Part shown: positions 9,825-46,413 of the stretch, piece by piece
Position numbering within the stretch: the stretch's first letter is position 1
Layout: each line of letters opens with the position of its first letter
DNA from: a virus
Length of the DNA: 64,000 nucleotides
Virus record (IMG/VR): IMGVR_UViG_3300045988_175028
Direction: 5' to 3' (one strand)
Position numbers and translations under genes: made by a program
The notes under the pieces: model-generated
Told to the model about the DNA's origin: nothing
Seen by the model: the letters and a program-made list of their open reading frames with translations, nothing else
The model's database searches: none

Positions 9825-11639
9825 TTATCCACATCTGCTCCAACCACAAGATTTACATATGACGCATCCGCCCTCTTGTATAAGTTCAGAACCGCACTCT
9901 GGACACTTAGCGCCATTATCAGTCTCTGGATTGAATGGGGGTCTACTCTCAGAGGTTGATATTTGAGAATTGGAATCTGCCAAGGCAATAATTGAATTTC
10001 CTTTCTCAATTCTTTCCTTCATCTCCTTCCACATTTCCATAAGGGCATTACCTACCGCCATAGGACAGCAAGCGCCCTTTGAAGTATCATGCTTTGTAGC
10101 AGTCCGAGAAGCATAACTTGGACAGGCGCCAGTACTTTGAAGCTGGTCGGCAATATCTTCAATTTTTACGCCACCGCGACAAGCTAGGGAAATCATTCGA
10201 GAAAGACCAACCATAAAGTTAGCACATCCACCGGTACTTCCTTTATTTAGATAAATCTCCATCAGGTCTCCCGTCTGGGGATCAAACCAGGCAGTACAAT
10301 GGAGAGAACCACAACCAGTAGTTAGGCGTCGCTTCATTCCAATTAGATTATCAGAGCAGCTAATGATTTCTCCACGAGGTAAACCTTTTTCTTCTTCTTT
10401 TTCTTGAGAGCTGTCGGTCGTTAGAATTCCAAGTCGCTTACAGCCATTTCTAAAAACAGTAATACCCTTTAATCCTTCTTTCCAAGCATTTAGGTAAATC
10501 TCTTCAACATCCTCAATAGTTGCCTCTTCTGGAAGATTCACCGTACTACTAATAGAAGCATCAATATGTCTCTGCCAAGCTCCTTGCATTAGGACTCTAT
10601 TTAGAGGAGAAATTGTTGATGAAGTACAAAACCAATTAGGAAGTTCAGCTTCATCTTTTATTCCATGTTCATCCATATATTCTTTTACAATTGGAGTATA
10701 TACCTTATAATATTCGTCATGACCATGAAGAGATTCAGTTTTTCGAGTGTAGGAGTTAGCAAAAATTGGTTCGATTCCTCCACTAATCCCCAACATCGTA
10801 GAAATAGTACCAGTTGGCGCGATTGTCAGTAATTGACTATTACGAAGACCATAAGCTTCTATTGCTTCTCGTGTACTCTCACAAGTGTTATTTTTTAGAA
10901 AACCACTTTTTTGAACGCAAGATTTATAATTATCATAAGACCCATTATGCCCAGCAAGAAAAGCCGAAGTATATAAAGCTTGGTCAGCCATTACTAGGCC
11001 GATTCTTTCACATAAATGTCGAGCTTGTTCTGAGTCATAGGGAAGTTCCATTTTTATAAGCATATCTGCCAAACCCATAATTCCGAGACCTATCTGACGC
11101 CAATCTGCGACGGATTGCCTCTGTTCTCTTAATGGATGCAGAGGAAGCCCTTCTTCTAATACTTCATTTAAATAAATAATACCATGAGCTACCGTTTCAC
11201 CAAAATCGTCAAAATCAAACTCTTTATCTTTTACAAAAGCAGAGAGATTTATACTTGACAAGAGACAAGAACCTCCCGCAGGAAGGGGCTCCTCCGCACA
11301 AGGGTTGACTCCTGCATATTCAAAAGTATCATCAAACTCAAGTAGATTATAATTGGAAATAGTATCCCAAAAAAGAATTCCAGGTTCTCCCCAATCCCAA
11401 TTATTTTTACATAACTTTTCAAAAATCTCTCTAGCTTTAGCTGTTTTTGTGATAGTTTCGTTAGTTTCTGGACGAGTAAAAGACATTACCCAATCCTTAT
11501 CATTGATTACCGCTTCCATAAAATCATCAGTCACACGAACAGAAATATTCGCTTTAGTAACAGCATCCGGAGAAGTCTTTATATCAATAAAGTCTAAAAG
11601 GTCAGGATGATGGCAGTCTAAGCTAATCATTAATGCCCC
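9825..11639 (-). CDS. nrdJ: ribonucleotide reductase (class II/NrdJ-like), exon 2
   Basis: Begins GALMISLDCHHPD, which continues exon 1 ...GQAGRR. NPCAEEPL, TIAPTG and a C-terminal CPECG...CKSCG Zn-ribbon. Confidence 0.75.
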   Translation of the reverse strand, partial: GALMISLDCHHPDLLDFIDIKTSPDAVTKANISVRVTDDFMEAVINDKDWVMSFTRPETNETITKTAKAREIFEKLCKNNWDWGEPGILFWDTISNYNLLEFDDTFEYAGVNPCAEEPLPAGGSCLLSSINLSAFVKDKEFDFDDFGETVAHGIIYLNEVLEEGLPLHPLREQRQSVADWRQIGLGIMGLADMLIKMELPYDSEQARHLCERIGLVMADQALYTSAFLAGHNGSYDNYKSCVQKSGFLKNNTCESTREAIEAYGLRNSQLLTIAPTGTISTMLGISGGIEPIFANSYTRKTESLHGHDEYYKVYTPIVKEYMDEHGIKDEAELPNWFCTSSTISPLNRVLMQGAWQRHIDASISSTVNLPEEATIEDVEEIYLNAWKEGLKGITVFRNGCKRLGILTTDSSQEKEEEKGLPRGEIISCSDNLIGMKRRLTTGCGSLHCTAWFDPQTGDLMEIYLNKGSTGGCANFMVGLSRMISLACRGGVKIEDIADQLQSTGACPSYASRTATKHDTSKGACCPMAVGNALMEMWKEMKERIEKGNSIIALADSNSQISTSESRPPFNPETDNGAKCPECGSELIQEGGCVICKSCGWSRCG

Positions 11640-35938: not shown

Positions 35939-36379
35939 CTATTTTTTTAGATATTCTCGATAAGCATTATCATTATGATAGCGGGTCCGGGCCAAATAAG
36001 CATCATTTAGTAAGTCCTTTACCGAAGAAATTTTATCCATGTCCCACCAAGGGATACAATAAAGAGGAATTTTATGAGAAAGACAATAACTTATTTTTTC
36101 TCTATCTCTCTCTTGTGCTTTTAGGAAATCAGAGCGATTTTTGTAAAAGATTTTTGTAAATTCCGTATGCTGACGTCCTTGGACTTCTAAAAGAATATTC
36201 TCTTCGGGAAGGAAAAAATCAAATCTATAATATCCATGATGAAGGTCACCAAAAGTTTTTTCCTTTACAAATTTGACTTTTTCCCTATTGAGAATTTCAA
36301 TTACTTTTTTCTCGTAAGATGAAACTTTATACATTTCCAAAAATCTGATACCAGTCGCACTCACTCGCCATCTTATCAC
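35939..36379 (-). CDS. PD-(D/E)xK-like nuclease (DUF559/Vsr-like)
   Basis: RFDFFLPEENILLEVQGRQH motif. The real start may be the internal Met at 36334. Confidence 0.4.
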   Translation of the reverse strand: MIRWRVSATGIRFLEMYKVSSYEKKVIEILNREKVKFVKEKTFGDLHHGYYRFDFFLPEENILLEVQGRQHTEFTKIFYKNRSDFLKAQERDREKISYCLSHKIPLYCIPWWDMDKISSVKDLLNDAYLARTRYHNDNAYREYLKK

Positions 36380-37436
36380 TTCTTAGGCGAACAGGGCGCG
36401 GATGCCTTAGACCATAACTATCAGCCATAACTTCCATTGCTGTAATCTCAATGACTTTTCCAAGATAAGATTTCCAATTCAATAGAATTTCCTCTTCAAG
36501 TCCGCTAAGATTTCCAACCTGAACCAGCTTCCCATCTTTATAAGCTCCAATTTTTAGAGAGCCAGCGCCACCAAGAAAATACATTTTTGTAATTGGTTCA
36601 ATGGGATCTCCATCACTATAATTTTTATATAGAGAGTCCTCGACTTTCTCACCAGTAGATAAGTTCTCCCAGTACTTCCAGCTCATAAGCTCTTTTCCAT
36701 TGTAAAGACGAGTCGGCACGTTTGCTCCCATAATTACCACATCCAGGGTCTCTTGAAGTTCTTTCTTCACTTTGATTGTCATATGCGCGGGAGTTCGCTT
36801 GAAATAAATTGGGCAGTCCTTTCGAGTAATTACTACTCCTTCTCGTCCAGAAGCTAGATAGTCTTGAAGACGATTCCACAATTCTTTCCCATTATAATAT
36901 TTAGCCCATTCTACATAAGGAGAACTTAATTGAGTAGAGATTTTTTCCAAAAGAGAAAAGCGCTCTATAGCTTTTGTATCTACTAGATTTACTCCATTAT
37001 AGGCACAGATATCAAAAATATAGAAATGAAGCTTCTGGCCACTCTCTTGACGAGCAATGCACTTATCTTTGAGACATCCCAAAAGAGAGGTAATATTTTT
37101 TGAACCTTCATGTCCGGGAAGATAACATTCACTTAGGAGGACGGTCCCATTAGGTAATTGTGCCATAAAATCCTGAAGTTGGGGGACCCATTCAATTTTA
37201 TTTACGGCTTCACCCTTTACATTTTTTTTGCGGGCTACCATAAAACAATTTCCATCCTCATCCTTTATGAGACGCTGATAATAGCCATCAACTTTCAGAG
37301 CGCCATAATAATCTCCACTATAAATAGCATTTACCACTTCTGACTTTCGTTTTTCTTCAGAATAGGATGCGGGAATGCTCCAATAACGCATACTTTCTGA
37401 ATTGACCCAATCAATATCACCAATAAATCCCTTCAC
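36327..37436 (-). CDS. ATP-dependent DNA ligase
   Basis: ALKVDGYY (KxDG adenylation site), EGVVI and OB-domain C-terminus. Confidence 0.75.
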   Translation of the reverse strand: MKGFIGDIDWVNSESMRYWSIPASYSEEKRKSEVVNAIYSGDYYGALKVDGYYQRLIKDEDGNCFMVARKKNVKGEAVNKIEWVPQLQDFMAQLPNGTVLLSECYLPGHEGSKNITSLLGCLKDKCIARQESGQKLHFYIFDICAYNGVNLVDTKAIERFSLLEKISTQLSSPYVEWAKYYNGKELWNRLQDYLASGREGVVITRKDCPIYFKRTPAHMTIKVKKELQETLDVVIMGANVPTRLYNGKELMSWKYWENLSTGEKVEDSLYKNYSDGDPIEPITKMYFLGGAGSLKIGAYKDGKLVQVGNLSGLEEEILLNWKSYLGKVIEITAMEVMADSYGLRHPRPVRLRSDKMASECDWYQIFGNV

Positions 37437-37989
37437 AATTTTCTCCTTTCAAAAATAAATCCGTAAATTTATAAGCTATTTTTTCCAAATCTTCCAAAGT
37501 TCCATCATTATGGATATAAGTATTATAAGTATAGTTATGAACGTCAGAATCAGCATGGTTAGATTGAACCTGTTCATCAGTCTCAATCCTCTCTACTATC
37601 AGAGTCCGCGCGCCAATTCTATCAACAAATTTTTGAATTTCCTTTGGTTCTCGACACATTATAAAGTAAAGGCACTTTTCTTCATTATATCCTAGCTGCT
37701 TCCAGATTTCTTTACACCCTACATAAGAATTAATAATGTCTTTATAAGGAATATCATCCCATTGAGTCAAAATATCTTTTAGGTCTGATAGAAATTTTCT
37801 ATCTTTAGGAGTTTTTTGGCCATTCCAACCACAGAATTTAGCAACCTCTTTTACAAAATCAACTGTAGAAATAATTCTACAACTATAAGGGCCGACTCTT
37901 TTTTCCATTATTTTTTGAACCATTTCACAAAATGTATCTTTTCCTGACCTAGGTTAAGGAAAGCCGTTGACAACAACGACATTTCTCAT
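37417..37989 (-). CDS. P-loop (d)NMP-kinase-like protein with an in-frame TAA at codon 12
   Basis: GAGGTG RBS plus ATG 37989: MRNVVVVNGFP-TAA-PRSGKDTF..., continuous with listed ORF 37417..37923. Confidence 0.55.
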
Positions 37990-38156
37990 TCAATCACCTC
38001 TTTTATTATTATATGTAATTATATTTCTTACATATGGTCTATATAGGGCTCCCACCTATTTCTTACTCTATATCGTTTTTGTTTCTTTTTACATAAAAAG
38101 AAAATTTTCCTGCTTACAGGTTTATTTATATCATAAATCCAGACAAAAAACAAATT

Positions 38157-45325: not shown

Positions 45326-45872
45326 AAGGGTCGTCTCGCCCTTAGTCAGAAAGAGACTATTTAGAAAGTTCGAATAAATTTTCCGCTTCCTATTTACGAA
45401 GAAAATGGGGTCCTTTCCGGTGGCGACAAGTAGAACCGGCGTTCGGGAGTCATCGAAAACTTCTCCATAGTTAGTGGGGCTAACTCGCAGACAGTGGAAA
45501 GTATCCTGTGTAAAACTGAGGCTTTCTCGGCATGGCCACCTGGTCGTTAGAATAGGTTGACTACTTATTCGCTGGTGACTTAAAAGACTCTTTTCTAATT
45601 TCTTTGAGGGCGCGGTGTCAAAAAATTAGACGAAATTGGAGCTATCGTATAATAGGTCGCCTTGGACTGCTCATAATAGTGATTGCTAACAAATGCGGGA
45701 GGGCACTCGCAGTAAATGACATGGTAAGGGACAAGGACCAACTAACTGGACATTTACACTAATCAAAACTGAGGTGTGGATTTTCTACTCAGTGGCTACA
45801 ACGACCAACTCAAGAGTGTCGGGTGTAAAGTAGGTTTTGATTAGGTTAATATGAGGAGTGAGTAGATATTTT
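45326..45872 (+). ncRNA. ORF-free GC-enriched structured block 2
   Basis: 547 nt between tRNA-Gly and tRNA-Glu, about 45-50% GC by eye against about 33% for the genome. No plausible CDS. Confidence 0.3.
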
Positions 45873-45947
45873 GGCCCGTTAGTCAAGTGGTTAAGACATT
45901 GGATTTTCATTCCAGTAACATCGGTTCAAATCCGGTACGGGTCACCA
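45873..45947 (+). tRNA. tRNA-Glu(UUC)
   Basis: GGCCCGT/ACGGGTC acceptor, loop TTTTCAT, A73-CCA. Confidence 0.85.
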
Positions 45948-46277
45948 AAGCCACCTATTGGGGTTCTCATGTGAAAATTATTGAACAAGCTACCCGACGA
46001 TGGAAAAGCGACTAAAACGATTGACCCACAATCGTAAAGAGAACGAGGCTTACATAAGCAAAAAGTAGGATAATGCTTATAAGAAATCCAGCATAAGGTT
46101 GGTTGACGATAGCAAGATGCTATACGAAGCGGATAATTGGTGGTCGAAAGTCCGTACAGTTGGGTGGTGACCAGTCCTAACAAAGCTCCCGTAAGAGACC
46201 TGGTCTTACTTTCAAATTTTTAAGTCGAGGGTTGTGGAGAGATAGGGAGAGTGAGTGAGGCTAGCTCGTGTAGACTT
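45948..46277 (+). ncRNA. ORF-free structured block 3
   Basis: 330 nt. Contains GGTCGAAAGTCCGTAC (46140-55). No plausible CDS. Confidence 0.3.
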
Positions 46278-46283
46278 AAAAAT

Positions 46284-46312
46284 TTGAAATTTTTCTAAAA
46301 TTTATGTATAAT
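46284..46312 (+). promoter_or_regulatory. consensus phage promoter
   Basis: TTGAAATTTTTCTAAAATTTATGTATAATATATACATAAAGTTGAGAAAG. Confidence 0.65.
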
Positions 46313-46337
46313 ATATACATAAAGTTGAGAAAGATAT

Positions 46338-46413
46338 TGCGGTATAGAGAAGTGGTTATCTCGCTGTCCTCATAAGTCAGAAATCGCTAGTTCGAATCTA
46401 GCTACCGCAACCA
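46338..46413 (+). tRNA. tRNA(CAU): elongator Met or lysidine-type Ile2
   Basis: TGCGGTA/TACCGCA acceptor, loop CTCATAA, A73-CCA. Confidence 0.8.

Follow-up and report, generated by a model that had tools for sequence, protein, structure and literature searches.

An in-frame stop codon kept in the Walker A motif of phage kinase genes, and its proposed bypass by a six-nucleotide ribosomal hop

Introduction

How could a phage make a P-loop kinase from a gene whose Walker A motif is interrupted by an in-frame stop codon? The question is raised by a deoxynucleoside monophosphate (dNMP) kinase-like gene on the minus strand of the virus record IMGVR_UViG_3300045988_175028, analyzed here as a stretch of 64,000 nt (the window, whose coordinates are used unless a contig is named). 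The original prediction for this gene was that ribosomes hop from a CCT codon over TAA to a matched CCT codon; alternatively, a 6-nt duplication would have made a pseudogene restarting at Met 37923. Having compared the locus with its relatives, we consider a 6-nt translational hop over the stop and the next codon to be the best reading, and hold it with slightly better than even confidence; the core of the original prediction is thus what best fits the comparative data. We favor the hop because the stop is conserved and yet varies between TAA, TAG, and TGA, because its flanking codons are synonymous and covary, and because of the spacing of the motif and the silent character of the changes downstream.

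Interruption of the kinase gene

In the window, ATG 37989 is followed by the codons AGA AAT GTC GTT GTT GTC AAC GGC TTT CCT TAA CCT AGG, then by TCA GGA AAA GAT (37947–37936), ACA TTT TGT GAA, and ATG (37923–37921). The minus strand thus encodes MRNVVVVNGFP, the stop, and PRSGKDTF, as had been predicted. The other predicted elements are also in place, namely the GAGGTG-type ribosome-binding site, which is the Shine-Dalgarno (SD) sequence GAGGTGAT; the identical Pro codons on both sides of TAA; and a common frame for the part past the stop and the 168-aa open reading frame (ORF) 37417..37923, seen both in the sequence and in the mechanical list of ORFs. As written, the gene comprises an 11-codon ORF followed by a 178-codon open frame, and TAA interrupts the Walker A motif GxxxxGK[ST/D] that follows the beta-1 strand. 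Only with TAA-CCT skipped is the motif intact: the protein then reads NGFPRSGKDTF, a canonical GxxxxGK[D] loop, also in agreement with the prediction. The window contains the kinase gene only once.

Conservation of the stop codon among relatives

Homologues of the gene are of two types. Type A proteins (MIIVVNGAPRAGKDTF, 186 aa) have no insert. Type B homologues are called as truncated proteins starting with MVQK or MEER, and their DNA has an in-frame stop at the same codon as the window; type B is found in 6 of the 14 closely related IMG/VR genomes. The original prediction had proposed a check of whether relatives keep the stop, and all contigs with the same N-terminal module do keep the stop plus one codon. 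The relatives that lack the six bases (type A, MIIVVNGAPRAGKD) have a different 5' module, so their uninterrupted frames do not count against the prediction.

Altogether, 36 independent contigs, counting the window, carry the extra 6 nt, and the first extra codon was a stop in every one of them, at the same codon in 35 and a codon off in one. All three stops occur at the site, and the 9-nt site exists in 11 versions. A pattern anchored on the N-terminal module of the window, with nothing required after the Pro codon, found the stop at codon 12 in 20/20 independent contigs, with five versions of the junction: CCT TAA CCT AGG, CCT TAG CCC AGG, CCT TAA CCA GGA, CCT TAA CTT AGG, and CCT TAG CTT AGG. 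In addition, we scanned IMG/VR without bias toward stops for N-G-x-P, any four codons, and G-K-D-T, and classed the matches by BLASTP against the kinase set. The 41 matches included 13 kinase loci (seven known loci of the window type and six further ones, including L038), and all 13 had the in-frame stop; none of the non-kinase matches had a stop within the four codons. In two of the three further arrangements, the stop lies one codon further 3' (Table 1). The same six-residue-spacing pattern had 45 matches in 596 Gb of bacterial genomes, searched for prophage or host copies, and none of them was a kinase.

Table 1. Arrangements of the site in further contigs
Contigs	Site	Arrangement	Source
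L040	GGC TAT CCT CTT TAA CTT GCC GGA AAG	Leu-stop-Leu	unbiased IMG/VR scan
L047	GGC TAT CCT CTC TAG CTC GCA GGC AAA	Leu-stop-Leu	unbiased IMG/VR scan
L055, L062, L065	GGC TAT CCT CGC TAA CGT GCG GGA AAR	Arg-stop-Arg	unbiased IMG/VR scan
L038	TTT CCT TAA CTT AGA AGC GGG AAA	Pro-stop-Leu	unbiased IMG/VR scan
L201	CTT TAG CTT	Leu class	second protein search
L202–L204	CTT TAG CTC	Leu class	second protein search
L205–L208	CTC TAG CTC	Leu class	second protein search

The codons flanking the stop are synonymous in 8 of the 11 versions and come from three codon families, Pro, Leu, and Arg (CCT/CCT, CCT/CCC, CCT/CCA, CTT/CTT, CTC/CTC, CTT/CTC, and CGC/CGT). Moreover, they covary, as in CTT..CTT of L040 and CTC..CTC of L047. 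Deleting the stop and the next codon restores GxxxxGKD in every version. This spacing is canonical in 98 of the 100 homologues that have a P-loop (120 homologues listed); the two exceptions, P0027 (..GLPQLRTGKD) and P0099 (..GFPWLMSGKD), are stop-bearing genes with TAG and TGA in their DNA. Similarly, among the best 80 loci of a family survey in IMG/VR, 72 were intact, all with canonical spacing, and 8 carried the stop. Six-residue spacing with sense codons was absent from the 98 and the 72 intact homologues, in line with the argument of the original prediction that the two residues added by readthrough would break the spacing. The kinase lineage of P0099 is only 51% identical to that of the window, and its closest relative, L037, is uninterrupted (GGA TTT CCA ATG TCA GGA AAA). 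The stop arrangement is a recurrent feature of this phage kinase family, associated with a mobile cassette, and not a peculiarity of one window. A sequencing or assembly error in the window has a negligible probability, as the same six bases or a variant of them occur in 36 separate assemblies from different studies and many samples, which rules out an assembly artefact.

Evidence on translation beyond the stop

The ten codons from the stop to the internal ATG differ nearly only synonymously in type B (AAA/AAG, ACA/ACT/ACC, TTT/TTC, TGT/TGC). In the P-loop stretch of L040 and L047, there are six differences, all silent (take-off Leu, stop, landing Leu, Ala, Gly, and Lys). The pseudogene with a restart at Met 37923, given as the alternative in the original prediction, does not agree with the relatives: L005 has ATT in place of this ATG, and no start lies nearby in L141 and L040. 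In the window, the internal ATG lacks an SD, and ATG 37989 has GAGGTGAT.

The stop-bearing genes are otherwise intact, encoding 167–190 aa wherever the contig spans the whole ORF (L027 is cut off and not judgeable). Within groups sharing a junction, the ratio of non-synonymous to synonymous substitution rates (dN/dS) is 0.06–0.4; in particular, it is 0.15 at dS 1.7 for L040/L047 and 0.16 for L055/L062, while L017 and L018 differ by 11 synonymous versus 3 non-synonymous changes. The stop-bearing kinase genes are under purifying selection, with the caveat of recombination considered below.

Homing endonuclease cassette

The six bases had been suggested to be a simple duplication. Instead, they are part of a homing-endonuclease cassette, which is intact in L141 and has left relics elsewhere. 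In L141, the interrupted kinase is immediately preceded by an intact 299-aa endonuclease ORF, whose stop overlaps the ATG of the kinase (AAA GAG GTG ATT AAA TGA). The endonuclease matches phrog_374 (E = 6e-54), phrog_559, and phrog_9084 'homing endonuclease' (phage homing/HNH families), and has Cys-rich repeats and a PD-(D/E)XK/DUF2726-like C-terminal domain. Upstream of it are the recipient's SD and first nine codons, ATG AAA ATA GCG GTA GTT AAT GGG TTT, after which the frame breaks; therefore, the element lies inside the kinase ORF, in the DNA of the P-loop, and supplies a replacement 5' end. In the window, the 18-nt relic of the endonuclease 3' end and the ATAATA next to it (Table 2) identify the allele as a cassette scar with the endonuclease deleted. 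Relics in other contigs, seen in L038, L040, L201, and L202, end in ..KEMM, ..KEVV, or ..RGVIL before the stop, and L038 and L201 keep the recipient's original N-terminal codons. The insert is thus associated with the endonuclease.

According to this scheme, the cassette inserted within the DNA coding for Walker A. It brought its own SD, contained in the last codons of the endonuclease, a new ATG overlapping the endonuclease stop, a replacement copy of the first ten kinase codons, and the six bases that place a stop and one further codon within the P-loop. By analogy with T4 gene 60, these six bases probably protect the allele from cleavage by its own endonuclease.

Other nucleases are present at these loci. 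A GIY-YIG homing endonuclease (L003, 3558–4172; Pfam E = 3e-12; phrog_314) is inserted between the kinase and ligase genes; we rejected it as the nuclease of the cassette, as it is absent from the window and most type B contigs, and it illustrates how rich in endonucleases these genomes are. In the window, a free-standing 146-aa ORF after the ligase (35939–36379, minus strand) shares its nuclease domain with the endonuclease of the cassette (phrog_9084 'homing endonuclease', E = 4.5e-22; motif ..IPLYCIPWW..) and lacks the N-terminal Cys-rich repeats. In L013 and other type A contigs (~1470–1500), a perfect TATAAT precedes the ATG by 8 nt, and AAGGAG precedes it by 14 nt. With this spacing, the intact allele may use a very short leader or none, whereas the cassette alleles have a canonical SD.

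Signals around the stop

A 7-bp stem-loop ends 3 nt before the take-off codon of the window, and a different hairpin of the Leu class (AUAGUC..GGCUAU) is in the same register. The folding energies, calculated for the 27 nt ending at the 3' end point of the hairpin, lie between −4.1 and −7.6 kcal/mol for sequences of the Pro and Leu classes. In the same region of 41 distinct intact kinases the hairpin is absent, and the mean is −0.7 and the minimum −2.9 kcal/mol (Mann-Whitney p = 2.5e-6 for stop-bearing versus intact sequences, the nine stop-bearing ones being phylogenetically non-independent). Double changes between GC and AU were found in 2 of the 7 pairs, and one more in the Leu class (AUAGUC/GGCUAU versus AUAAUC/GGUUAU in L202). 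A terminator scan scored the hairpin at 37963–37980 (minus strand) together with TTTCCTT as intrinsic-terminator-like, within the first codons of the kinase.

The hairpin named in the original prediction, TTTCCT (37962–37957) paired with AGGAAA (37945–37940) across an 11-nt loop, does exist and is in the minimum-free-energy fold of the window. As a take-off signal it finds no support: there is no covariation, and the terminal pair is broken in 4 of the 9 sequences. Both arms consist of codons that have to specify Phe-Pro and Gly-Lys, and so the intact relative L037 has equal complementarity.

The base 3' of the stop is C throughout the 11 versions, since every landing codon is of the form CCN, CUN, or CGN. 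In the window, C follows only 4 of the 48 genuine gene stops and is the rarest context there. In E. coli, termination is slowed by a Pro at the end of the peptide as well as by a C following the stop; such slow contexts were reportedly described by Poole et al. in 1995 and by Hayes et al. in 2002.

Table 2. Features of the kinase locus and related features in the window
Feature	Position	Strand	Remark
P-loop kinase gene, dNMP-kinase-like	37417..37989	−	188 aa if 37956–37951 are skipped
Shine-Dalgarno GAGGTGAT, 3 nt upstream of ATG 37989	37993..38000	−	kept in all cassette-bearing relatives
Proposed take-off codon CCT (Pro11)	37957..37959	−	sequence, relatives
In-frame stop TAA, A site at the proposed take-off, next base C	37954..37956	−	always a stop in relatives
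Proposed landing codon CCT, matches the take-off codon	37951..37953	−	relatives have CCT, CCC, CCA, or CTT
Rest of Walker A, AGG TCA GGA AAA GAT (R-S-G-K-D)	37936..37950	−	differences in relatives nearly all synonymous
Internal ATG, Met23 of the hop product, start used by gene callers	37921..37923	−	no SD, not conserved
5' stem-loop GUCGUUG-UUGU-CAACGGC, 7 bp, ends 3 nt before the take-off codon	37963..37980	−	−7.6 kcal/mol, compensatory changes
Hairpin of the original prediction, TTTCCT-(11 nt)-AGGAAA	37940..37962	−	present; no support as a functional element
Endonuclease 3'-end relic AAA GAG GTG ATT GAA TGA (..KEVIE, stop), 18 nt, TGA overlaps the kinase ATG	37986..38003	−	nucleotide homology to L141 and to the relics in L038, L040, and L202
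ATAATA, residue of the recipient's original start	38004..38009	−	type A/type B upstream alignment; ATG ATA in type A and L017–L019
Phage tRNA-Pro(UGG), which can decode CCU at take-off and CCN at landing	43362..43436	+	link to the hop speculative

Proposed mechanism

Judging from the sequence, the site has the layout of a stop-hop, with flanking codons that can be read by the same tRNA and the stop directly 3' of the take-off codon. Ribosomes would start at ATG 37989, make MRNVVVVNGFP, and then stall, the peptidyl-tRNA-Pro being paired to CCU while the A site holds UAA-C, where termination would be slow. In a fraction of ribosomes, the tRNA would un-pair, the mRNA would slide by 6 nt, and the tRNA-Pro would re-pair with the matched CCU. 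Decoding would resume at AGG, and the resulting ...NGFPRSGKDTF... would have the canonical GxxxxGKD loop. By refolding on leaving the ribosome, the upstream hairpin (37980–37963) may favor the forward movement; in the bypass of T4 gene 60, a 5' stem-loop refolding behind the ribosome is the proposed driver of such movement (bioRxiv 10.1101/2024.12.09.627546; bioRxiv 10.1101/2022.08.31.505936). The hop would also explain why the stop is conserved: once the 6 nt are present, a sense codon gives only a Walker A motif with a two-residue insert, while the stop lets some correct enzyme form. Frameshifts of +1 or −1 around the stop were rejected as routes, since no P-loop results when these frames are read by eye.

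Several observations weigh against the hop. Synthetic stop-hops are inefficient according to the review by Atkins et al. (2016; PMC5009743). Three of the 11 versions (six contigs, four kinase lineages) are CCT-stop-CTT, a near-match only, and this landing codon would pair with tRNA-Pro only via a G-U in the middle position; as it occurs in four lineages, CCT-stop-CTT may be the ancestral state of the cassette. In the lineage of the window, the landing codon is CCN in 17 of the 20 contigs, which would be the pattern expected if a better match is selected, although the change could have gone in either direction. The matched codons may also owe less to selection than to cassette assembly from overlapping copies, of which they would partly be a by-product. 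With a nascent peptide of just 11 residues, a nascent-peptide stimulator as in gene 60 cannot operate. The hairpin of the Arg/Arg class is weak (−1.4 and −2.8 kcal/mol), and the hairpin evidence as a whole comes from few sequences that are phylogenetically non-independent. Finally, these phages are mosaic: the gene body of the window is 89% identical to a type A protein and 81–86% identical to several type B ones. With free recombination among them, the low dN/dS and the intact gene bodies could have been brought in from functional alleles instead of being preserved since the insertion.

Alternative explanations

This last point bears on the view that the allele is simply null, the cassette having inactivated a kinase that is dispensable or complemented by the host, and that it persists by past homing and recombination. 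Any protein would then start at Met 37923 and lack the P-loop. We regard this as unlikely, even though the cassette is indeed the scar of a mobile element, gene callers report only the 168-aa ORF, and recombination of the mosaic bodies with intact alleles could account for their integrity. The endonuclease is gone in the lineage of the window, and yet the allele is found in 6 of the 14 related IMG/VR genomes and in 20 contigs with five versions of the junction. None of the fully covered stop-bearing genes has a second lesion, and the stop has mutated only to other stops. Moreover, the ten codons from the stop to Met23 evolve synonymously while the restart codon is unconserved, and free recombination combined with purifying selection should replace a null 5' module by that of type A. 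Readthrough, in which a near-cognate tRNA reads the stop and yields a low, possibly regulated level of kinase with two extra P-loop residues, would fit the conserved stop, its weak termination context with Pro before and C after, and the CCT-stop-CTT versions that have no perfectly matched landing codon. Still, it seems quite improbable to us, as the spacing it would produce was seen with sense codons in 0 of 98 and 0 of 72 intact homologues, and it would put Pro in some versions and Leu in others behind the stop, in the most constrained motif of the protein. In addition, it leaves the synonymous, covarying flanks in three codon families unexplained, and the use of all three stops is at odds with any one suppressor; the window and its relatives yielded none.

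Two further explanations concern regulation and the genetic code. The 11-codon ORF, the hairpin, and the U-rich tail could form a leader peptide or attenuator that regulates a downstream cistron by stalling at Pro-stop or by transcription attenuation; the mini-ORF has a strong SD and ends in Pro-stop, and the hairpin with TTTCCTT was flagged as terminator-like. The chance of this is small in our view. At −7.6 kcal/mol, the hairpin has little stability, and the U-tract behind it is interrupted and is missing altogether from the Arg/Arg class. No downstream start codon is conserved, and the downstream P-loop codons are conserved in the frame of the leader; also, judging from the structural model, a product without the beta-1 strand and the P-loop could not be a kinase. 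Least probable of the biological alternatives, with only a very slim chance, is a different genetic code or a phage suppressor tRNA, which is implicitly assumed by the gene callers of ENA (TAG as Q, TGA as W). Homologues P0027, P0099, and P0219 are indeed deposited with Q or W at the stop, and one relative has TAA inside its ligase gene. However, TAA, TAG, and TGA all occur at the site and all three end normal genes of the window, the other genes are uninterrupted, and no suppressor is present among the ARAGORN tRNAs of the window and its relatives. Reassignment of TAG to Q or TGA to W would show as stops in many genes, avoidance of the codon as a terminator, and a suppressor tRNA, and these features are absent here.

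Genetic code, tRNA genes, and neighboring genes

Of the 48 long ORFs in the window, 32 are closed by TAA, 12 by TGA, and 4 by TAG, and the adjacent in-frame ORF pairs of the window are ordinary gene boundaries or antisense frames. The kinase is neighbored by genes for RNase H and an ATP-dependent DNA ligase and by a tRNA array. A tblastn search with all ORFs of the window found no systematic in-frame stops in the neighbor genes of its relatives; the only case is a TAA in the ligase of L006 (3998–4000), where the window has GAA (GK-stop-LW versus GKELW), which is either a real nonsense variant or an assembly error. In L004 (~2645–2660), RNase H is frameshifted in a T run, probably by a homopolymer sequencing error. 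Public gene calls render TAG as Q or TGA as W in P0027 (L005), P0099 (L036), and P0219 (L201). The callers picked alternative codes on these short contigs because of the single stop, and so the database contains spurious 'sense' versions.

ARAGORN found no suppressor tRNA in the window and 14 related loci. The array in the window (41595–46413, plus strand) has 11 tRNA genes (Gln, Ser, Asp, Asn, Trp, Pro-UGG, Leu-CAA, an odd 'Thr', Gly, Glu, and Met) and lies ~4 kb from the kinase on the opposite strand. Between tRNA-Leu(CAA) and tRNA-Gly(UCC), there is a tRNA-Glu-like gene, with a D-arm like that of E. coli tRNA-Glu and a discriminator G (window 45008–45077, plus strand; L030 8878–8954; L035 6412–6488; L155 9298–9340; and L154, contig 178722, match 10758–10799, minus strand). 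Its anticodon stem-loop differs in each phage (ARAGORN calls in quotation marks): the 8-nt UGCAGGAA ('cagg'), GGGCAAC ('Cys'), AUGGUCU ('Thr', the window), and AGAUAUAC (not called). The gene, present in type A as well as type B genomes, may be a decoy or a fast-evolving tRNA. We rejected the form with an AGG-containing 8-nt anticodon loop (L030, L035) as a specific promoter of the hop, because the loop is different in each genome, including a type A genome.

Kinase family and fold

The 188-aa protein obtained by removing the six bases matches PHROG 139 'deoxynucleoside monophosphate kinase' with its N-terminus only (E = 1.7e-8). Its match to Pfam DNMK (PF21448) has 21.5 bits, below the cutoff of 27.1; some of its homologues, of which there are ~1,700 in phage metagenomes, carry PF21448. 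An AlphaFold2 model, built from a 16-sequence alignment, has the NMP-kinase P-loop fold with pLDDT 90.8. Residues 4–9 of the model form the beta-1 strand, 10–14 the P-loop, and 15–29 the next helix, so the stop is predicted to fall in the catalytic loop. The best PDB matches in Foldseek were phosphomevalonate kinase 3ch4 (TM 0.60) and dephospho-CoA kinases, and T4 dNMP kinase 1dek was also matched (E = 9e-4). A sequence search of PDB with the family profile gave no informative match.

The nearest isolates are Enterocloster phages, with 40% aa identity and intact kinase genes. No INPHARED match was obtained by megablast with the locus or with the 15 kb around it. A pair of 'two hypothetical proteins' in a Rhizobium phage was rejected as a split gene; the second is actually a neighbor gene overlapping by 4 nt. 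The related contigs are ~95–120 kb long, and at least one record is labelled human gut metagenome.

Discussion

Few natural examples of bypassing are available: T4 gene 60 and its homologues, the byps of yeast mitochondria, and a candidate in a Streptomyces phage. In-frame hops over a stop have so far been shown only in engineered constructs. Synthetic hops between matched codons flanking a stop were described in E. coli (Weiss, Dunn, Atkins, and Gesteland, 1987; O'Connor et al., 1989; both as cited in PMC5009743). As outlined there, their geometry is the same as that proposed here, with matched codons around the stop, 9 nt yielding one amino acid, and a product two residues shorter than that of readthrough. 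In that account, they are engineered, inefficient, and have no biological role, whereas the kinase site is natural, is found in at least 36 phage contigs, and lies in an essential motif. No natural stop-hop was known as of the 2016 review (Atkins et al., 2016; PMC5009743), and our searches of a paper library found neither a later report of one nor a prior description of the arrangement at this site.

A close parallel to the kinase site is T4 gene 60, where the bypassed 50-nt insert belongs to the MobA cassette and disrupts the recognition site of MobA (Manning and Atkins, 2022; bioRxiv 10.1101/2022.08.31.505936), and is often kept after the endonuclease has been lost (bioRxiv 10.1101/2022.08.31.505936). 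In both cases, the target is a conserved phage gene of nucleotide metabolism, an endonuclease element supplies a new N-terminal region, and the insert outlasts the loss of the endonuclease. On the other hand, the gap is 50 nt in gene 60 versus 6 nt in the kinase, the target genes are different, and there is no sequence homology. The endonucleases also differ, being MobA in T4 and a PD-(D/E)XK/DUF2726-like protein with Cys-rich repeats in the kinase cassette. The nascent-peptide stimulator of gene 60, ~14–30 residues upstream, is impossible at the kinase site, where take-off would be at codon 11. Unlike gene 60, the kinase site has no SD inside the gap and no supported take-off stem-loop, while a 5' stem-loop upstream of take-off is present in both (37980–37963 in the window).

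Other known cases share single traits with the proposed hop. In the terminase of Streptomyces phage Hau3, as in the kinase, short (10-nt) candidate bypasses in a phage gene were derived from conservation across the protein junction, but there the gap shifts the frame and the trigger is the rare sense codon UUA (PMC10732093); here the gap is in frame and the trigger would be the stop. Bovine placental lactogen over-expressed in E. coli (Kane et al., 1992, in the summary given by PMC10732093) undergoes a 6-nt in-frame hop between matched codons, as proposed for the kinase; according to that summary, it is an artefact of tRNA limitation over a sense codon and not a conserved natural feature. Unlike the kinase insert, the 'byp' elements of Magnusiomyces capitatus mitochondria are GC-rich, 27–55 nt long, and have an unassigned codon in the A site (PMC5009743).

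We see an even chance that the kinase site would be the first natural, evolutionarily maintained stop-hop, the skipped insert being the self-protection of an endonuclease cassette and the system a minimal, independent counterpart of gene 60/MobA. In that reading, the stop-hop would proceed without a nascent-peptide signal, and the 5' hairpin may help. The locus provides a natural series of 11 versions of the site, with three tRNA families at take-off, three stops, matched and near-matched landings, and compensatory variants of the hairpin. Current gene callers mis-annotate these genes, either as truncated ORFs or in an alternative code with the stop as Q or W. If the hop is true, even the most conserved motif of an enzyme is open to invasion by homing endonucleases, since the ribosome can edit out the scar, and the logic of gene 60/MobA would extend to a second, independent system.

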